Shown here piece by piece: positions 11,001 to 48,531 of a stretch of DNA of 64,000 nucleotides (position 1 is its first letter; each line of letters starts with the position of its first letter). The position numbers and the translations under genes were made by a program. Source of the DNA: Saccostrea echinata (Eukaryota); the NCBI RefSeq assembly GCF_033153115.1, contig NW_026889750.1, forward strand, positions 7,812,001 to 7,876,000, given 5' to 3'. The notes under the pieces were generated by a model. The model was not told where the DNA came from, did not search any database, and saw only the letters and a list, made by a program, of their open reading frames with translations.

Positions 11001-14000
11001 TTAAAGTTTGGTAAAATTTTGCAAAACTGGGTGAAACTCTAAGGTCAAAAGGTCAAATATGGTGGTACCCAAAGAAAGGTTTTTTCACAAGGAATACACA
11101 TGTGAAATATGAAACTCATATCTCTAACTAATCAAAAGTTATGGTCAATGTTAAAGACAAACAGACACAGACAGACAGACAGACAGACAGAGCAAAAACT
11201 ATATACCCTCGAATCTTCGATATAATCTTCGGGGCATAAAAATAGTTTGACTCCATATTTACGTCTTTATATTATATAATTTCTTTAGAGCCCCCCCCCC
11301 CAATTTTTTTCATTGGTGTTTAGAGGTTCCTTAAACTAATTAATCACGTTATTTTTGTGTTGTAGTGCTTTTTAAGGATAGTTTTTGATTCGGAATGGTA
11401 GGGTTAGTATAATAATGCAGTCTCTTGTAATCAATCTATCAAAAACAGCTGGGCTATATGCGTTCTATTAAATGCTATAATAAGCAATTCCGACATCTTT
11501 CATGAAGAGAATTTTGCTTGAAAATGAAACTGTGTTAAATTTGTATAATATAATTAGTTAATTTCCTAATGTCATAAATATTGCATCCACGTAGCACAGT
11601 TAAGGCTGCAATAAGAATCGCCCATCCTTGTAAAGAATGTATTTTCTATCTAAAAAATTCGCCGATATTTCCATTTGGCACCTTAACTGTACTGCGCATG
11701 CTTGCTCCGTCAAATTAAATATTAATGTTTTGAAAAACGAATTTCGGCGAAAATATTGGACCCGTGGGGCTGGGATGTGGAATATCTGATTCAGTGTTTG
11801 TATGTAAGTCTCGTTCACTGCATGTTGAGAAGAANNNNNNNNNNNNNNNNNNNNNNNNNNNNNNNNNNNNNNNNNNNNNNNNNNNNNNNNNNNNNNNNNN
11901 NNNNNNNNNNNNNNNNNNNNNNNNNNNNNNNNNNNNNNNNNNNNNNNNNNNNNNNNNNNNNNNNNNNNNNNNNNNNNNNNNNNNNNNNNNNNNNNNNTGT
12001 GTCTATAATTCTTGGAAGATATCTGTTATGTCTTGTATTCTATATGCGACACTTTCCAATAATTTAATTTAGTATTCTTAAGCTGCTGTGAGAAACTTTT
12101 TATACACTTACAGCAAAATTGATATTACATAGCAAGATTCTCTCCTTGTATTCCAAGACTACGATAAGCTATAGCGTTTGCACAGAATATCTTAAAATAA
12201 ATCTCATTGAAAGCATTTTTTAAAAAAATTGTACAAATATTGTTTATATACAGTAAGTGTCTGAGGTATGTTAAAATCTCGCATTAAGCGATTGAGGGGC
12301 AGTATGAAAACCATCTATCCTTCTGTATTCAATAATTCAGAAGTAAAAAAAGAATTAGATTAGACGATCAGTACGTAGTGGTCCCTGCTGACAAAGCAGG
12401 TAACTACATTGTCTTTGTTTGTAAGGCTCATAAATTGTATTTTAGAGGAACTGGGATTTAAATCCAACTTATACACATAGCTCCCTTTCTAAGGAGGAAA
12501 TTCTTCAAAATCATATGTCAGTTTTGAATATTTTTAATATTCCCAACAACAAAAATGAATCTGAATTACCATATCTAAATTGGATTCCGAAACTTCATAA
12601 AAATCCTTACAAACAACGATACATAGCGGGTTCTACTAAATGTTCTACCAAGCCTCTTTCTTTACTCCTCACTAAGATATTAACAATAGTGAAGGAAAAA
12701 CTTCAAGAATACTGTACAACAATATATTCGAGAAGTAGTGTAAATCAGATGTGGATACTGAAAAATTCCAAGGAACTTTTGGAACATTTGAAATCACAAA
12801 ATTTTATCAAAATCATGATCAACACCATAAAAACTTACGACTTTTCAACTTTATATACAATTATTCCCTACGATAAATTAAAGTCCAGACTTTCTGACAT
12901 CGTTGACAGCTGCTTTTATCAATAAAAATGGAACTCGTAAATTTGTCATTGGTCATTTGCAAAGTTTCTTTGTTAAAAAACAATCTGATTGTACACACAA
13001 GTACTCTGAAGTTGACATTAAAAAGATGCTCGAGTTTCCGATTGACAATATCTATGTGGTTTTTGGAGACCAGGTCTTCCAACAATCTATTGGAATTTCC
13101 ATGGGTGCCAATTGCGCCCCGTTATTAGCAGACCTATTTTTGTATTCATATGAAGCAGAATTTATTCAAAATCTTTTACGTGAAAAGAAGAAAACACTTG
13201 CTGTGGCCTTCAACTCGACATTTAGATATATCGACGACGTATTGTCAATTAACAATGGTTATTTCCATTCTTATGTCAATACGTTATATCCCGGTGAGCC
13301 TGAGATAAAAGACACCACAGAGTCGGACACATCTGTTTCATATTTGGACATTTTATTAGAAAAAGACGTTAATGGTAATCTAACAACAAAGCTTTATGAT
13401 AAACGTGATGACTTTAACTTTTCAATCGTCAACTTCCCTTACCTATGCAGCAATATACCCTTGTCACCTGCATACAGGGTTTATATATCTCAGTTGATTC
13501 GATACGCCAGAGCATGCTCTACGTAGGAAACAATTTCTAAAATGAGGTAAGTTATTGACAAACAAGTTGATGAAACAAGAACATCAACAGTCTCATTTAA
13601 AGTCATCATTTCGTAAGTTCTATGGTCGATACAATGACCTTGTCAGCAAATACAATCTATTATTAAGTCAAATGCTGACTGACGTTTTTCATACAAATTG
13701 TTGGGCCATTATTTATACACTGAATTGTCGACGAATTTTTCCGTTATTTCCCGATCATGACAAGGAGCACACGGCGGGTATGACCGGTCAGCAGGGGATG
13801 ATCACTCCTCCATGGCACCTGATCCCACCTCTGCTGTCTTAGAGGTCCGTGTTTGCTCTGCTCCTATTTTGTAATGTTTAATGGACTTTTGAGTTTGAAT
13901 ACTGTTCGTTATCTCCAAATATTTCATCTAATATGTTAGAGTTCTTTCAGGTGTACCAAGCATTGAAATACATTCCCCTGGATTGGAGCATGATGAAGAA

Positions 14001-15404
14001 GGCGAGAAACTTATCTTTACATGTACAGTTAGATCTATTCCGGAAGCAACAATAGTGGAATGGGGAATTCAGCAAAGTCCAGAAGATGTTTTTAGAAAAA
14101 TAGATGTGCATGACCCTATGTATATTGGATCAACAGTTTCGATGCCATATCCAGTTTTAATGGTTCATAAATATTACCAAACATCATCTCAAATATATCT
14201 CATAAAAGTCACCAATTACATTGGAGAAACAACTGAAGTTATTCAGGGTATTTTTTATATTCTTATCGTCTCATATTTCTTTGATAAAATTATTAGTATT
14301 CTTAAATCAAGGATGACATTTAATTAGATGATAAAAAATACTCCACTGATAGGAATGAAAAAACACCTTTTGTACATTACGGTCCTATGCTTTTATTGCT
14401 GTAATTTACTTTGAAATAACAAGGTTAATGACCAACTTTTCAAGCTAGTACCCTCTCCCTATTCCTAGGAAAAATACTTTTTTACACTATGACTAATATT
14501 TTCCTTATTTAAAAAATATAACCAGTATCAAATCTTTAGGATAATAAAATATGTTGAACATGGGATAGTGTTGCTGTATAAAAATAAACAAAAAGAGTTT
14601 GAGCAATAGACTTGTTAGTAATTCTTCTGGATTTCCTTCGTCGATTTTCGAAATTCTACCAAAGTTTAAATATAATTACAAATTTTACTAAAAACTGAAT
14701 GATTGGAACTGTAAACTGTTTATGGCCTCATTTTTTTTATATTGCCCTTATTCTGTTGGTGTTAAAATTATATGGGATCAATGATCATATTCTTGAGATA
14801 TGATGCCTGGAATAGCTTTTGTTCATGTTTAAGATTTTTTTTCATTGCATGTCATTGAATGATATGAAAAAATACATGAGCCTTAACAAACACAAAATTT
14901 GCAAAATTGTAATAAAAACACATCGAAACATAGGTTTCAAAATATTTTCGTAAAATAAATAAATAATGAATAGATAAACAAAATGAAAAATAAAATTTAT
15001 TCCGAATTTCCTCTACATTACCATAAATCTATCTTTGTTCTTGCATTTTTATTTCAAATTGTAAACTTTAAATTTTGATATTGGTAAGGATTTATTTTTT
15101 CAATTGTGAACATTTTTTTTTATTGAAGGTATTGTACTTTTAAGCAACCTTGAGTAAACGTTAACCTTGATGAAACTAATGAATTCCATTAAATAATGTA
15201 ATTAACAAAAACATTTTGTTCTCTGTATAGATTCATGATTAAAATATTCGATGGTTATAATTAGAGCAGTGAACATTTTGTAAATACATGTAGATGTGTT
15301 AAAGTAAAAATACTTTGATTAAATAATTTACAGACCAAACACACAGACGGATGGACCCCTGCCTGAATTCTAAAGAAGATGGTAAGCAAAAATATTTTTA
15401 GAGA

Positions 15405-17685: not shown

Positions 17686-20600
17686 ATAAGTAAAACTTAG
17701 AATTCATTTATGTACAGTTCCCAATGAGAATTCCTTTGAATAAATTTACTCATTTATGGAATTTCTCATCCCTAAAATTTCTTTTTATTAATCACAAAAC
17801 CCAATCACGGTTATTGTAATATCGTAGCATTTCAAGAAACCGCCTTCACTCTCCATTTTAATAAACCACAAAACACTTAGGTATGTTGCACTTTGCCACT
17901 AATGTGACTTAAATTATTGCAAATAATTGTAATTGATTATGTAGTACTTGCATTTGCCTCTCCTAGTTGGCAAGGCCAAAACCTCCAAGAATAATGTAAG
18001 CGTGATAATTTTTTCTATATTCACTCAGGGCATTCCCATGTCCAGAAAAACTTTGAAGTGAAATATATATCGTAAATCTGGAAATTTTTGCTGTAGATAA
18101 ATTTTTAGCAAATTTGCGCATGCATTGCATTCGCAAAAATATTTTTCTTAAAAATAAATCAACAACAAAAAATGTTTTTATCTAAAGATTACTTAAAGAT
18201 TACATCGTTATATATATTTTATGTACATGTGTGATTTATGAAATTGTTATGAAAACTTTCAACACTTTGGATGATTTATCTTTTCTAACATTTTTATCTG
18301 ATTATTGAACGTTGGCGTAGTGTAATAGTGTATGTTTTATTCGTAATTTATTGTATGTACATGCATAACTTACAAACGTTTAAGAAAATTTTAAGAGCTT
18401 TTTATATATTAGTTCAAATGACGATTCGCAAAAATTTTAAATGTAAAAATTAATCAACAGACTTTTGACCCAGATTCGCANNNNNNNNNNNNNNNNNNNN
18501 NNNNNNNNNNNNNNNNNNNNNNNNNNNNNNNNNNNNNNNNNNNNNNNNNNNNNNNNNNNNNNNNNNNNNNNNNNNNNNNNNNNNNNNNNNNNNNNNNNNN
18601 NNNNNNNNNNNNNNNTATCGAAATGGGGCCTTGATGGTTATGTTTGCCAATCTGTTGGACGATCTAGCAGAACTTTTTCCAGAATACAAACTCAAAAGGC
18701 TTAAATTTTTACTTCGTGGTGAGTGACATGTATTAAATATATTGAGTCATAAGTTTATTTAACGAATAAACATTTAAAGTTGAACAATAGTATTATTTCC
18801 ATGATTTCGAGTATATAAAGTGTTGTTCCAAACAAGCCGAAATTATGTATTTGACTCTGAAACAAAAGACAAAGAAAATTGACTGAATTGGTTGTGTGAC
18901 TTTTAAATTATACTTTAGTACACATAACTATGTTTAGAATTGATGGGAAAAGACACAGAGACCATGATGGAAGCAGAATCCATGAGAGAAATTTTACAAG
19001 TTTTGAGACAGAAAAATATATTCTCTCCAAAAGACGTCTTAACAATGCAATACTTACTAAGAAAAACAGAATGTGCTGAACTGTGCAACAAATGCACCGA
19101 TTATGCAAAGAAATGCAAAGCTCTGTGTTTCTTTGAAAATCAACCAGGTAATAGATATTCTTCATTACATGTCATTTCGTTCAAGTTTATTTTCCTATCT
19201 AACACTTCTACTACTTTTTGTAGAAAATGGATATAAACAGGCCAGGTTTCATGTAAATGGAAATGTCGAAGATTATTCAAAAGAAGATCTTCTTCGTATA
19301 CGAGATACGATCGCTGCTATGTTAGACTGTTCCACAGATTCTGTATCTATTGAAGGACTTCGACCATCTGAAAGCTTTGTAGTCGTTGTAGCTATAAAAC
19401 AGGAATACATAAATAGACTTTTAGAGCGCGCTCAAAACATTTTAGTTCATCTGTGTGATTTAAACGTCGATTACTTTGAATGTGATGGAGTCAAAATCTA
19501 TAGGCAAGGTAAGACATGTATACGTTTCCATGAACTTAAAACGTAGATGATAGATTGCACATTTGAAACTTCTGATTTTCCGTATTACCGAGCAGTCTAA
19601 GACTATTTGTTTTCGTCAAGTTTTTTGTCGGCCTAGATGAAGGTATTGTGAGCTTAATTAGGTAGTATTAATGCACACTATTTTCAAAATTTTGCTTAAT
19701 TTATACTCCAAGTAACGCACATAAAATCCATCTTAAAACTAATATTTCTCTCTATCATTTAAGATCTGTATTGAAAGAGAATCATTTTGTCTCATTAATG
19801 CTATCAAAAGTCTTAAGAATTTTTGCATAAAGTATTTTCATTACCGACACCTATATCTTCATTAAAGGTCAGAAAAATTTGGGGAAGGGAGGGTGTTAGC
19901 GTTGCAGTCCATCTAGTATGACCTTTCTACACAGTATTTGGAACACAAAAAATTACTTTTTTGAAACTTTAATGTATTCACCTGCGTGAATTATGACACA
20001 ACCAATTACACATTCTATGTAATATATCTAAAATAATGAAAAAAAATGTTCTAAATTACTTTCCATTATCAACAGATTTTTCTTCACCCATAAAATGCCA
20101 TTTTCTGGTATCTATCTTGATTCGATATATTCAACTGAACTCAAAATAAAAACACCACAGTCTGCACATCCGTTTCACATTTGGATGTTTTACAGAGACA
20201 AAAACATTTATGGCAAAATAACATCTTAACTCTTTTAAAAACGTGAGGACTCTGACTTTTCTATCGTCAGCTTCCCTCATGTATTTGTAGAAGGTAAGAG
20301 AGTGGTATTATGGTAATATGAAAAGGTGTCGGTAATATGTTTAGGTATTTGATTTCCACTTTTCTATTGAAGAGTGGGAAGAAGCAAAGAACACGGGAGA
20401 AAGCACTGAAAATAGTCAACATCATCCGTCTGGTAAAGATTCAATCATTGATTTCAATTATATCTCACTAATGTAATGCATTATTGCATGATGGATATCC
20501 TTCGGGGAAACCAAGGTTTTTAAGTCAAAAAGTAAATTTATGTAGTATAAAAAAGCGCATTTTTTATATTTGTTTATATATGTTTAATTCAAGTAGGCAT

Positions 20601-23600
20601 TCAAGAACAGAAAGAGAGATACACTATACCAGTTCAGTGCGTCTCTGACATAGACGAATATAATCTAGCATCACCACTTGAGTTTAGCTCGTTGTTGCCT
20701 CCTGGACCTTCAATAGCAATTGAAGAAATACCTTTCGATGATGAAAAACATGTACAAGAAAAACAAGATATGGAAGAAACAAAGGAAAAATTATTTGAAA
20801 GTTGTAAAATAACGACTGACAATGATGAGAATGAGACAGCTTTAAAAATTGTTTGCCAAAATAAAACAGAAATAGACAGCACGATAGGTAAGGGTTTTTG
20901 CAGTAAGTTTGAGCAGGCGTAAAGGTAATCAAAATAAAAGTTTAAAACACTTACCTTTGCTAATTCCTTTGCAGAGTCTGCTTCCTTAGAGGATAAAGAA
21001 GTTACTCTGGAGACCTATGAAGATCGGATGTATCAGAATGAATTAGCAGAACCTGCACAGAGAGGAAAAAACTGCATTATCATAGCCCCAACCGGGAGTG
21101 GGAAAACTATTGTTGCAATTAAAATTATTGAGGTATACACAATTAAGATACTTCATCATAATATTTTAAAGGGATTTCAATATATTAAAAAATAGATCAG
21201 CAATAGATAACTTAAGATATTGTTTTCAAGAGATAATTTTAAAGTGTTTTTCATTTACACTTCATTTCTTTTTATTCAAACAAATCGAATTTCAAAAAAA
21301 TATTGGCTATTTTCATACTTTAAAAAATCAGATATTTTCTTCATTATGCAATTAAGCATCATCTTAAAGCTAACCTGGGACATAAAGTCAAGAAGATTGC
21401 CTTTGTTGTGGACAAAAACAACTTGGCAAAGCAGCAGGCAGATGCAATTAAACGCTATATCGCGTGCAAACTAAAGGTTATATCAGGGGATACAATGCGT
21501 GAAGAAGAATTTACACAACTGTCTTCCCTTCTTCCACGGTGAGCTATTCATTAATGATTTTGTAACTGATATATGGTGGAATAAAATATGAATATAATTA
21601 TTTCTTTTTTTTTAATGCTTTTTGGGGTTTCTTGTAGGGTGACACAAGGTATAACACTTTAGCAGTATTTCATTGAAGTCTCTTCATCTTTTATCACACA
21701 TTTGATTAAATCCTAAGCAAGCGCGGAGAATTTACTATATTTTTACTTCTAGTGTCAGAACAATTGCAAGACAAGTAGTTTCTACTGACAATTACAGTTA
21801 ATGACAGTTTTAAGCAAGAACAAAAATCTTAAAAATTATCTTTCATTCAAAATCTTGTAGTTATGGTGGCAGCATTAGTAGTCAATTTTTCATTCCAAAA
21901 TTTTGCGTTTCACACATTATATATATAGGCCCAATATTTTTTTTTTTAATCCTATAAATATTGCATTCAGAAATGTCTAAATGCTTTTAAAGCAGAATTA
22001 TAACATCATTAGTGAATTGTGAAAACTCAGAATCCAAATATATGCATGTAGTCGGAAAACAGCTCTTCAGGGTTAATGTTTCTTGTTGTCTAACCCGACC
22101 TTAAATAAATATTGTCTTATCTAAGTAGTTTACCACAAAAAGGATAAACAAGAGGCCCATGGGCCACAACGCTCACCTGAGTAACTTTGGCCTTGCTGTT
22201 TTTCACCTGATCCCCTCTTGTAGTGTTTATTGTGGCCCCGCCCTACCCCCAGGGGTGATGATTTAAACAATTAGAATCTACACTACCACAGGATGCTTCC
22301 ACATAAGTTTCAGCTTTTCTGGCCCAGTGGTTCTCGAGAAGAAGATTTTTAAAGATTTTTACTACATATTTCAATGTAAAACTTGGATTCTCTATTGTGG
22401 CCCCGCCCTACATCCGGGGGTCATGATTTGAACAATTTAGAATCTACACTACCCCAGGATGCTTCCACATAGGTTTCAGCTTTTCAGGCCCATTGGTTCT
22501 TGAGAAGAAGATTTTAAAAGATTTTTACTACATATTTCAATATAAAACTTGGATTCCTTGTTGCGGCCCCGCCCTACCCCCCGGGTTCATGATTTGAACA
22601 ATTTAGAATCTTCACTACCCCAGGATGCTTCCACATAGGTTTCAGCTTTTCTGGCTAAGTGGTTCTTGAGAAGAAGATTTTTAAGATTTTTACTACATAT
22701 TTCAATGTAGAACTTGGATTCCCTATTGTGGCCCCGCCCTACCCCCGAGGGTCACGATTTGAACAATGTAGAATCTACACTACCCCAGGATGCTTCCACA
22801 TAGGTTTCAGTTTTTCTGGCTAAGTGGTTCTTGAGAAGATTTTTAATGACCCCACCCAATTTTTGTCTTTTCTTGATTATCTCCCCTTTGAAGGAGACTT
22901 CACTTGAGTTTTCAGCTCAGATGAGCTAAAAAGGCAGAAATAAGTATATTTTTTAAGAAAAATTTTCTTGCTACAAATAATTATGTTAATGGAAAATAAT
23001 AAATTATTGTATTTTTGTATATTTTATATTTATTTCAATGTGCCAGAAGTCCTTTTACTCATAACAATAAAAGCACTTAATAAAATCATGTTTTTGAGAA
23101 CAAAGCTGCAGGAAACTGTTATTTACTTTCTTGGTTAATGTTCTTACAATAACAGCAACTTATATTTACAGTTATGTAAAAAGAAAAAAAGGCTTGAGAC
23201 AGATAGCTTTGAGACCTTTTCATTTCACTTAAGCTCCCAGCATGGGGTATCATAGTTCAATGCAAATTTCACATCTAAAATCTACCAGCTTCAATTGGCT
23301 ATAAGTTATTGTTGACACATTTAAAGAGGTATGACGCACATAGTATACGACATGGCTTACTTCCCTTTTTGTATAATTAAGTAGTTTTTCTGATATACAT
23401 TCCAATGGACAGAATGATGTATCTACTTTTCATATAAACGTACTTGTTTTATTTAAGCAGGATTTTGAATAATGTTTTTTTTTAATGCAGAAAGGAGTTA
23501 CTTTTCTTCTATATCTGAAATCTGGGAAGAAACAACAATTATAGGTGGCGCTTCATCTAGCTGTAATATCGAATTTTGAAAAAAAAAAAAGTATATTTGG

Positions 23601-44235: not shown

Positions 44236-46508
44236 ATGAAGAAAAATAAAGAAAAATTCGGAATGTGTTGGAAAATGTGGTTGCTGAGTATTTTAACTCC
44301 CTCCCTGTGTTATAAGTTTAACAGTCGTTCAACAGATACTTGTGAACCCATAGAGATACCCATGTGTCAACACATGCCGTACAATATGACTCGTATGCCC
44401 AATCTTTTACATCACAGTTCTCAAGAAAACGCTAAACTCGCCATAGAACAGTTTCAGCAGTTAATAGACCAAAATTGTAGTGATGTCATATTGTTTTTTC
44501 TATGTGCCATGTATGCGCCAATTTGTACTGTTAACTTTCAACATGCACCTATTCCCCCGTGCAGGAGCGTGTGTGAGCGCGCACGTGCAGGGTGTGAGCG
44601 AATTGTAAATTATCACAATATTTCGTGGCCGGAGTATTTAGACTGTTCACGTCTTCCGCGATATGATCGGGGAGTTTGTGTTTCACCAGCAGCTATTGTT
44701 CAATCTACCAAAATCACAAGTAACGGGACCGGAAGTGAGTATATTTAAATTTAATAAACAATTAAATACATTGTTTTATTTCTTTCAGTCATTCTATATC
44801 ATGCAAATATGCAGTTTGGGTAAATACGGATGTATGATTTTCATAACTTGCCTACATACAATGCGGTTTTGCTGTATTCTTCCGTCTAATATTAAAGATT
44901 ATATATATGTATAAATATTTTACTTCGTTGAACAATCTTTAGTATTTATATTTCAATCCCCCCATCCTAAACATTCAATTACCTTTATCTAACTTAAATT
45001 TTTAACATCATTTCTTTCCAAATATTTACTTAATGACTTCATATATTTGTCCGACAAATAGAATGTCAAAGCCTGCAAAAGAATACGACTAAAAGTTAAA
45101 ACCATGCCCTGGTGTTTGTGTGAGAAGTGTTTTAATCGGGCCTTTGATCGCAGTTATTAAATATTCCATAAAACTGATAATCCCTTGATTGAAGCCTACA
45201 TTATCGATAGAGTCACTCCAAATAAAACACTAGCACGGACATCAATCTCTCTTGACGACCTCAAACACTGCGCCTGTCTAAATATTGACCGTTCCTCTGA
45301 AGTTTTAGAACCAACAGTCCTCGTGCGCCATCCGATCAACAATTTAGTCCCCATCGGGTTCGTTACTGCGCCTTCCCATTGTTGCGGGGGAATAAATTCG
45401 GGGTATCTTTGAAGTTCAAATTTTCACTCCTATCAATTTCATTCGTTCACACTTTAAAGAATTCTCTCTGAGGTTTTTAAGACCTATGGGGTTTATTTTC
45501 TTCGCTGGGTCTGTCATTGAGTTTTAACGATCGAATGTTTTTTTTCATGCTGAACCCCGATGATTATCTCGATACCCCGTTATTAAGAGCACCAAAGTGA
45601 CTAATTATGCCACTTGACAAGTTTAATGTTATTCTTATATTCTATGCATATTTCAGCTAAGAAAATTTGTCAACATGAAATTCTGAGATGTGACTTTTTA
45701 CTTCATATCTTGCGATCTTTGTTAGAAACCAAATAATCTTCGAACTCCATGTAATCTTTTGCCCACAGATACTGTTTCATCTTTTCTAAAACTGTTGCGA
45801 CACTTGTTCTCCAGAACTCATTATTATTAATCTTACACCCAAGTTCATGCTGCTTTGAGCATCAATTTTTGCATTCATATCACTTTATATCTTCGGGGGC
45901 CTTTGAAATATATCTGTCGTAATTTGGAATCCAACTGAGCAAAAATTTCAACAAAATTGTGGAAAAGAGAAATTTAGATTTTTTTTCCCCTTTTCATCAT
46001 TATCCTTTTCCTTTGATAAAGATATATGCGGCATCTTTTTAAATTACGAACTTCAAAACTTAAGCTTTAGCCGAGGTATATTCAATACCTGTAAAACAAA
46101 TAGTTTTCACCGACCCCTTTAATATTTTGAAAGTTCAATGGAATTCATTACAAATAATCATTCTCTACGAACACATCATAGCGCTTTGTTTCTTTGAAGA
46201 CACTGATAGCCAAAAATGTATTTTAATTTTGTTTAACAGCGGAATCTGCTTTTATCCCTTTTCTTCTTTTGAGTGGCTTACTTTCATGTTTCATTGATTC
46301 TGCGTTGAAAGTGAGAGCAGATAAGACTGTAAATTAATTAATATTCCTCTTTCATGCAGACAAAGCAAATCCTGAAATACAGAATCCGCGTCCGCCTATA
46401 GGAGGTGGTCCAAAAGGTAGGATTTATAAACGTCATATATGTACAGAAAAAGTTTGGATCCGACATTGTCAAAACCAGAATAAACCCCCCAAAAAACCAT
46501 TACATTAC

Positions 46509-46575
<67 letters not shown>

Positions 46576-48531
46576 CAAATTAGCGAATTAAATTAATTTA
46601 CTTGATACTGGTATGTTGGTATATCAATGTATTCATAAATATTTAGTTCCAGATTGTAATGTTCTATACTTTCAAATAAGAATTATTTTATTGTTTTTGT
46701 TCTTGTATAAATTGAGACTTTTCTTCATTTTTTGGAATATCTTGAAACAAAAAATAAACAGTCCTACTGACACTCCTGAGATTACGTGTACTTTCACCTT
46801 CCTACATATTGGTTTAAAAACTTGAACTTTTAAAAAATTATTAAAATGTAAAGATACCTTTAACCTCCACTATTTCATTATTAGTTTCTTTGAAATTAAA
46901 CGTCTTCATTGTAATTTTAGTTTGTAGATGTAACCGTAAATCATCCAAACCAAAAAGAAAGAAATTCAAACAAGGGCGCTTTCATTTTGGTAAGTTCAGC
47001 GTATTCATGTTAATTTTGTTATGACACACGTAAGTAAAATTGAATTACTTAAAATTTTAGGAGAATCTTCGCACAATTCATTTATATTGAAATCAATTAA
47101 GGAAACATGACAGAAATTTACTGTTTCACATTTCACACATCTAGTGGAAGAACTATTTGTAAGAAAAAAATCCTAATCTGTATACGGCCACTTAATATAA
47201 CACAAACGTAAAGGCGATCGTATGTATTTTAATAAACATGCCCCACATGACAAAGTAAGATGCATATCAAAGGCAATTCTCAAATACCTGCCGGATTTAA
47301 AAAGGTAATGTTTTTAATTCTCATAATGAAAAATGTCAAAATAAGGTTTGTGTTCACAATGCTTCTTTCTCTAATTCACATTTTTGATGTAGTGGGGTTT
47401 ATCCGAGTCACACAAATATTTAACATCAACATTGTCCTTAAACCGCTTTCCCTTTTCTTAAAAGACATTATGAACCAATGATCAATAATGATTAAAGATA
47501 CGCAATGTTTTTTTCCGACACGATAAAATCAGAGGGAATTTAGTAGATTCCCAATGCTCGTGTGAACACGACCCCTGGAGAGACCTCGGTAATGATTATC
47601 AATGTGACTTTGACACTAAGGATTTGATTTCAAGAGTTTCAACGAAAAATTGACAAATACGCTTTACAGTCTAGTCGCCAACTCTCAATTGTTTTAAAAT
47701 CATCAAGATTATGCAACAGAAGTGATCTTATTTTTCTTCTGGTATTACTGCTATAGTACCCCACTGTGCACAAAATGATCATTCTTCAATATCACCATCA
47801 TAATTCTTTTAACAGCCACAAAATGTACATATACTTTTTGTGTCTTTTACAATTTTCAGACATTTTTCAGTATTTTTTTTTCTTTTTGTTTTGTTTTCGT
47901 TCAGCTATTCAAGGAAAAATCAAACAACAAGGTGTCATCAACAATGCTAATACTGTTACTAGAATCGAAGTCCTGAAAGTATTGAAGGAAAGCAAAGTCC
48001 ACATCAAGGTGAATACCACTGTTGATCTATGGACCAATTCCACGTGTGTCTGCCCGAGGCTCGATAGTGATCGCACATATCTGCTCATTGGATATGAGGA
48101 CACAGTTACACAAAGACTTTTGTTTTTGGATAACTGTCTTGCAGCAAAATGGCAAAAGCGATGGGTGAAAAGAATTAAGGTTTGTGTTGTTCTTTAACTT
48201 ACATGTATTTTTTGGTCCAGGAATGATGCATGATTCAATGGAAATTCAAACTCGTCATTCAATGAAATGATTTAATTATGAGGTGAAAAACATTGTATTC
48301 TCTTTTTCCAGAAATGGAACAGGAGAAAAGGAAGAAAGTGTAGAAAATCAAGGAGTAAAAGATGTCGAAAAGGTCGAAAAAGGAAAAATAAAAACAGGAA
48401 AAGGTATAAATATTTTAATTCTTAATAAATGTTGTACAAGACTGAGCAGTAAAGCTAACAAATACATCTGTCTGTCAAAGATGATATCTAATTCTGACTT
48501 TCTTCTCTTCTACAGAAAACAGAAAAGCTGA
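44236..48531 (+). CDS. FRZB: Secreted frizzled-related protein 3/4 (FRZB-like). Exons 44236-44734, 46360-46416, 46921-46989, 47905-48179, 48312-48403, 48516-48531
   Basis: Hydrophobic leader; Frizzled [12 protein letters not shown]...[25 protein letters not shown]...[12 protein letters not shown]...[14 protein letters not shown]...YDRGVCVSP, diagnostic of sFRP3/4; NTR domain CRC...[12 protein letters not shown]...YLLIGYED...RLL...KW; canonical splice sites in phases 1,1,1,0,2. The true start may be a downstream Met (44263 or 44275). Confidence 0.93.
46512..46573. repeat. (TA)n microsatellite
   Basis: Direct reading. Confidence 0.95.

Follow-up and report, generated by a model that had tools for sequence, protein, structure and literature searches.

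DED-type ('L2') RLRs are known from lophotrochozoans, with Lingula LanRLR8 as an example (Yao et al. 2022, PMC8998645). Like the gene described below, receptors of this type combine an RLR helicase and C-terminal domain (CTD) with a DED at the N-terminus that was gained by exon grafting. The same source reports the oyster receptor CgiRLR6, an RLR with four Ig domains; its main text mentions neither HEPN nor TRADD, and the term 'DED' is absent from the text of its supplement. A second group of hybrids joins TRADD-N domains of the DEDD2 clade to RLRs, in Lingula together with HEPN and a coiled coil, in Branchiostoma with TIR, in cnidarians with CARD, and also in sea urchin (PMC8195603). These proteins resemble the present gene in placing a TRADD-N-like domain at the seam before the helicase and, in Lingula, in being led by HEPN. 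The 11 'RIG' fusion entries examined in the source data of that paper all belong to the DEDD2 clade, and none of them is molluscan or includes a DED or Ig domain. An N-terminus of the present kind is described from Crassostrea gigas, in which a constant HEPN-Ig-DED-TRADD-N (NCOA6 clade) region is followed by variable tails (Kaur et al. 2021, PMC8195603). The constant N-terminal cassette is shared with the locus studied here, whereas the C-terminal parts reported in Crassostrea are WD40 or Mab-21/cGAS-like and that of the Saccostrea chimera is an RLR; of 20 HEPN+Ig entries examined in the source data of that work, 15 end in nothing or in a beta-propeller. DED-RLRs and TRADD-N-RLR fusions are thus known in other lophotrochozoans, and the present combination was not found in the literature searched. 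Publications on this locus or domain combination were likewise not found, although a like fusion could be contained in the source data of PMC8195603, and a literature search pairing Saccostrea echinata with RIG-I returned zero papers.

The window (64,000 nucleotides of Saccostrea echinata contig NW_026889750.1, positions 7,812,001 to 7,876,000) contains an RLR gene whose features are collected in Table 1. A sequence-only reading of this DNA had described a DED split over two exons that splice in frame, with the first half missing from the ORF track, and both observations hold. The visible part of the first exon reads YRNG...KFLLR at 18616-18717 and continues into G/gtgagt with the donor at 18719; it escaped the ORF track because it provides only 34 codons, bounded by a run of N and an intron. 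The second exon follows an acceptor tttag/A at 18938 in continued phase 1 and closes with CCAG/gtaata after 19147. Together, the two exons equal residues 4-107, letter for letter, of the public protein XP_061172835.1 (P0001; 1038 aa, annotated as RIG-I-like [Saccostrea echinata]). This protein matches the locus at 99% and maps to 16 exons, and its precomputed Pfam list already includes DED.

Table 1. Features of the chimeric RLR locus (positions in the window).
Feature	Position	Strand	Details
HEPN_DZIP3 exon with start codon	7484..8096	+	Pfam PF18738 E=1.9e-22; phase-1 GT donor
Ig exons 8195-8503, 8604-8873, 9052-9363, 9510-9794, 13951-14247	8195..14247	+	GT-AG, phase 1
DED exon a, visible part	18616..18718	+	helices 1-2, FL motif; public-protein map
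DED exon b	18938..19147	+	CAEL at RxDL position; Pfam DED E=7.4e-5 alone
TRADD-N-like (NCOA6 clade) exon	19224..19508	+	predicted ferredoxin-like fold, conserved Ser158
Graft junction in intron	20279..20298	+	8-base microhomology 20279-20286, CARD2 exon 3' fossil, donor gt at 20294
RLR body (linker, SF2 helicase, RIG-I_C and C-terminal domain) in 13 exons	20373..36532	+	exon map, Pfam

Profile and fold comparisons agree in assigning the head exons to the DED family, which had been proposed against CARD and Death. The Pfam DED profile matches the whole of P0001 at E=4e-7 (30.6 bits) and its residues 1-203 at E=5.7e-8 (33.3 bits), scores that stay below the curated cut-off of 35.9, and DED is the only death-fold family in the Pfam result: neither CARD nor Death occurs among the 14 families listed at E<=10. 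Among the aligned relatives, 56 of 98 match Pfam DED at E<=0.1, and a profile of the DED sequence family run against the PDB placed DED proteins in the best 32 of 60 matches listed. An AlphaFold2 model of the DED with the domain that follows it (98 sequences, pLDDT 93.5) was compared with 48,161 chains by VIA, and the best 11 of the 50 matches listed are all DED proteins (Z 13.9-10.2). PEA-15 ranks first (Z 13.9, rmsd 1.8, 89 aligned), with FADD at 12.9 and caspase-8 at 12.2, while the best scores outside the family are 10.0 for pyrin, 8.1 for Death and 7.7 for CARD. Neither the DED-containing model nor the model of the second domain had a Foldseek match at E<=0.001. The modelled fold of the head exons supports a DED and resembles DEDs more than it does CARD, Death or pyrin domains; the Pfam families listed and the VIA ranking rule out a CARD or Death identity. 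Compared with the DEDs of FADD, caspase-8, cFLIP and PEA-15, the oyster domain folds alike (rmsd 1.7-1.9 A over 84-89 residues) with the FL motif in register, but identity is 15-20%, the E/D-RxDL triad is lost, and a TRADD-N-like neighbor is fixed at the C-terminal side.

The two motifs by which this DED had been characterized have different histories. F34-L35 in helix 2 does align in register with the FL motif of the FADD-like and caspase-8-like DEDs of the same genome, and CAEL does occupy the RxDL position, as the sequence-only reading had stated in calling FL kept and RxDL degenerated. Both charged halves of the E/D-RxDL charge triad are gone: the E/D column holds Lys (K28), and Arg is replaced by Cys. 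The implied decay within this RLR is ruled out, since the Cys is a trait of a subclade (tree support 96/93): it is common to all 8 members, which make up 8 of the 46 family rows. As judged from this distribution, the change from RxDL to CxxL is inherited from the donor subfamily. The Phe of FL occurs in 12 of 46 family rows, the nearest relative P0002 having HL and the tandem duplicate YL. With CxxL derived from the donor subfamily and FL unconserved there, neither motif points to FADD or caspase-8.

The claim that a single DED replaces the tandem CARDs stands as to the CARDs but not as to the DED being alone. The exon directly downstream encodes a second domain, and the cassette is probably longer still; both this exon and the HEPN-Ig exons upstream had been overlooked. 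Modelled alone, the 19224-19508 exon gives a ferredoxin-like (ACT/RRM-like) fold at pLDDT 95.4. TRADD-N (1f3v) aligns to this model with Z 7.3 and rmsd 3.0, covering 92 of 95 residues, the most among the 50 matches listed, but other ferredoxin-like domains score higher, with SEA, MAD and Nup54 at Z 8.2-8.7; in the wide VIA search with the two-domain model, TRADD-N is not among the best 50 matches. The TRADD-N profile is weak on the exon itself (Pfam E=0.15), while at E<=0.1 NCOA6_TRADD-N matches 19 of 98 relatives (best 2.4e-5) and TRADD-like_N 9 of 98 (best 1.7e-7). The first Atlas match for the exon scores 0.91, with PF13820 in 32% of members. Overall, the sequence points weakly to TRADD-N. 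Ser158, present in 45 of the 46 family rows, would correspond to the conserved Ser described in PMC8195603, and the placement of the domain after the DED and between domains also fits the NCOA6 clade. The DED/second-domain module has 203 representatives at E<=0.001; of the 150 listed, 46 cover the DED and the second domain together.

Upstream of the DED, the HEPN and five Ig exons join into 695 aa free of stops, with GT-AG introns in phase 1 and a last donor in phase 1; with the DED and TRADD-N-like exons, they stand in cassette order and in frame. The HEPN exon, likely the first coding exon of the chimeric gene, is 52% identical to residues 1-208 of P0002, and the Ig exons are 39-52% identical to the matching exons of P0002 and P0003. 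At 7850-7870, the HEPN exon encodes a putative RNase motif R-N-E-M-F-G-H (Rx5H), which fits the Rx4-6H signature of catalytic HEPN domains, in which R is followed by a polar residue (PMC3710099). P0002 is encoded on another contig of the same genome (C54) as a HEPN-Ig5-DED-TRADD-N-STAND-ankyrin protein and is exon-for-exon colinear with the window cassette. In a domain scan that took in 44 of the 150 listed DED/TRADD-N-like relatives, the best were the HEPN-Ig-DED-X-nSTAND3-ankyrin proteins P0002 (49%), P0003 and P0013, together with HEPN-Ig-Roc P0010 and the Mab-21 protein P0005. A HEPN exon lies 6-20 kb upstream on the same strand for 6 of the 7 DED matches outside this cluster. These comparisons place the DED in an expanded oyster family of DED-TRADD-N modules that normally reside inside HEPN-Ig-...-STAND, Roc or Mab-21 proteins. 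Across P0005, P0008, P0010 and P0018, the partners of the DED-TRADD-N-like dyad are Mab-21, CARD, Roc-COR and PARP14-type RRMs. Among 528 candidates of 570-1817 aa from a word index, no protein other than P0001 itself shared its residues 1-205, a weak result in that the index also missed P0003 and P0004.

The C-terminal part of the gene is an RLR of recent CARD-bearing ancestry. SF2 helicase motifs, RIG-I_C and the zinc-binding CTD motifs are all present, as in vertebrate RIG-I/MDA5 and the canonical oyster RLRs, and dsRNA sensing is expected; unlike these receptors, the Saccostrea chimera has no CARDs. Pfam finds no tandem N-terminal CARDs in P0001, and the only remnant of CARD2 is a 16-base exon-end fossil. 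The five closest helicases (57-76%) all carry CARDs. In a tree of 23 rows, P0001 is sister to the CARD-bearing S. cucullata protein P0151 (support 100/99), the closest CARD-bearing relative found, and lies within a CARD-bearing clade; an analysis of 13 rows rejects a clade of the five CARD-bearers that excludes P0001 (p-AU 0.0014). The DED and second-domain profiles matched none of 119 other RLRs. Orthology to an old DED-RLR lineage is ruled out, as the helicase nests among CARD-bearing oyster RLRs. The chimera differs from the L2 RLRs in its independent, recent origin in a CARD-bearing oyster clade, with donor family and breakpoint both identifiable.

The breakpoint can be followed to the base. 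Likeness to the duplicate of the cassette ends at 20286, and likeness to P0151 begins at exon 20373, the exon after CARD2. Between these points, 15 of the 16 bases at 20283-20298 match the ends and donor of the intact CARD2 exons of two paralogs, and only three such CARD2-end sites (the fossil and the two paralogs) occur in 274 kb on both strands. The fossil donor lies 79 bases from the next exon, compared with about 85-90 in three paralogous introns. The 8-base microhomology overlaps the join, with 7 of its 8 bases matched on the CARD side. The simplest reading of this arrangement would be that a deletion brought a resident cassette and the RLR together. Very probably, a copy of the cassette landed in the RLR cluster and was joined to the receptor by a microhomology-mediated deletion after the split from P0151. 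Replacement of the tandem CARDs, proposed by the sequence-only reading, is supported by the CARD-bearing kin, the CARD2 fossil at the junction and the p-AU test. As an alternative origin, a single tandem duplication of RLR body plus cassette was rejected, the upstream flanks of the two copies sharing little similarity.

The surrounding cluster (C1:7626k-7849k) holds 8 of the genome's 13 matches to the RLR C-terminal domain, two of which are duplicated 3' ends behind complete bodies. A second cassette copy (G000:C1:7781538-7790775), 86-98% identical per exon, lies 6.3 kb ahead of an RLR body at 7797063-7803387. That body is CARD-less, lacks the first four exons and is interrupted by stops in its first exon. 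The cassette carries frameshifts; its phases are compatible with the body behind it. Elsewhere in the cluster, at G000:C1:7696943-7714004, a HEPN exon (Pfam E=7.8e-27) is found about 1.9 kb ahead of a CARD exon set; two more CARD2-like exons occur there, and C1:7690-7750k gave no helicase match.

The exon series from HEPN to CTD is probably one gene of about 22 coding exons and about 1,740 aa, transcribed as one mRNA and ordered HEPN-Ig5-DED-TRADD-N-linker-helicase-CTD. Against a single mRNA, the public protein P0001 starts at the DED exon, opening MKFYRNG, without HEPN-Ig. It is possible, if rather unlikely, that there are two genes, with an RLR that starts at the DED exon (1038 aa, DED-TRADD-N-RLR) and HEPN-Ig exons that form a separate short or dying transcript; this alternative concerns gene structure only and overlaps with the readings of mechanism given below. 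It gains from an in-frame Met near the start of the DED exon in both the duplicate and the C54 gene, and from a stop met within about 25 codons when the last Ig donor is read through. It loses from the structure of the P0002 gene, where the DED exon is internal and a phase-1 acceptor stands three codons before the Met, a spacing and phase repeated in the tandem duplicate 41 kb upstream of the window DED. The corresponding acceptor in the window, where the run of N adjoins the exon, is not visible. Two further points weigh against two genes: the HEPN-Ig exons lack a terminal exon, and they are constrained. Compared with the duplicate, the Ig exons show 0 indels in 1473 nt, where 13.6 would be predicted from the intron rate (P about 1e-6, or 1e-3 at half that rate). 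The rate is 33 gaps in 3580 nt with one intron excluded, as its alignment ran past the junction, and 43 in 4383 with that intron; the HEPN exon, with 5 indels to the duplicate, was left out of the 1473 nt. The pN/pS ratio to the duplicate is a moderate 0.58. Polarised changes are split 23 to 9, mostly on the duplicate (p=0.02, 19 ambiguous), which favors the window copy as ancestral. Constraint measured against a duplicate shows past, not present, coding.

Overall, we lean by a small measure towards a chimeric RLR that would act without MAVS, in which a DED and a predicted TRADD-N switch domain from an oyster immune gene family stand in for the two CARD exons, likely with HEPN-Ig and its predicted RNase in the same mRNA. 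In such a protein, the helicase and CTD would take the role of the donor family's STAND-ankyrin sensor by loading on dsRNA. Clustering could then reconfigure the TRADD-N hinge, following the model of PMC8195603, and the DEDs may self-associate or bind kindred DEDs. In a last step, paired HEPN domains would cut RNA as a predicted RNase. HEPN domains act in pairs. No demonstration of RNA cleavage by an animal DZIP3-type HEPN was found in the literature examined. Independence from MAVS would follow because the CARDs are missing and no CARD-CARD contact can form. The complete sequence of dsRNA loading, TRADD-N switching, DED association and HEPN cutting is put forward tentatively, at less than even chances.

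A more far-reaching version, which we regard as unlikely but worth stating, is that the protein is a one-chain dsRNA-triggered ribonuclease whose RLR body switches on HEPN through the DED-TRADD-N hinge, in a recurring HEPN-led RLR design. The OAS-RNase L system offers a functional analogy; here, sensor and predicted RNase would lie on a single chain and use no second messenger. Other RLRs led by HEPN are found in Mercenaria (P0207) and on contig C54 of the oyster genome. The latter (G000:C54:67811487-67830589, +, L066-L068) is unrelated to the window gene and consists of a HEPN exon (Pfam E=1.7e-24, RNEIYGH), one unassigned exon and helicase and CTD exons in a layout resembling P0207; it gave no match to CARD, DED or the second domain. 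If the one-chain ribonuclease were real, HEPN-led RLRs would represent a recurring invertebrate antiviral design (window gene, C54, Mercenaria and Lingula), and this locus would be a recent graft for which the donor family, the sister that still bears CARDs and the exact breakpoint are all known.

The coupling proposed earlier, in which the exposed DED directly nucleates FADD/caspase-8 DED filaments and dsRNA triggers apoptosis independently of MAVS, is less favored than the chimeric DED-TRADD-N receptor, and we consider it improbable. The ingredients are available: the closest solved folds include the DEDs of both proteins, LKFLLR is identical in DED1 of a caspase-8-like protein of the same genome, and that genome contains a FADD-like gene (G000:C53:2658k) as well as two caspase-8-like proteins with tandem DEDs and QACQG (C56:14677k and C25:11792k). 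The binding surface is reported to be the hydrophobic patch rather more than RxDL (PMC4558505), and direct nucleation would fit either gene model. Against it, this DED family normally sits inside large proteins beside TRADD-N, FL is unconserved in the nearest relatives, and Lys and Cys have removed both charged halves of E/D-RxDL. In one caspase-8-like gene, an exon between the DEDs and the caspase domain (L061:2023-2391) appears Death domain-like by eye.

An equally improbable account is that the product does not signal, being either an LGP2-like regulator or a young, decaying chimera with a functionless head. The sister chimera is broken, its cassette frameshifted and the RLR behind it interrupted by stops, which shows that such chimeras can be dead ends; the end branch of P0001 is longer than that of P0151 (0.21 vs 0.12), and the pN/pS noted above is only moderate. 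However, all 22 coding exons of the window gene are open as far as visible, its helicase and zinc motifs are intact, and the changes fall mostly on the duplicate. An assembly misjoin as the source of the fusion, suggested by the duplication-rich cluster and by the fusion being found in this species only, is very improbable given microhomology at a biologically telling join site, a difference of 2-14% per exon between the two cassettes, which means they are not one sequence placed twice, and the lack of any tblastn match to CARD exons in the 115 kb from C1:7755k to the window end.

As a chimeric DED-TRADD-N receptor, the locus shows how invertebrate immune receptors are rewired, with phase-1 introns linking a ready-made effector cassette to a new sensor. 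The lost CARD exon has left a scar that can still be read, and the CARD-bearing sister in a congeneric oyster serves as a natural control. Should the long mRNA exist, it would offer a direct test of a DZIP3-type HEPN as RNase and of TRADD-N as switch, with dsRNA as trigger, and the gene may bear on antiviral resistance in farmed oysters.

Other features of the window include two broken intronic element copies at 12446-13523 and 24873-25903 (+), 91.5% alike over 965 nt, which we take to be reverse-transcriptase-like from their YIDD motif. A 57-base tandem repeat at 3604-4203 has long open frames on both strands. Downstream of the RLR, Fz (E=5e-34) and NTR (E=6e-12) exons at 44200-48194 (+) mark a secreted frizzled-related gene by architecture.
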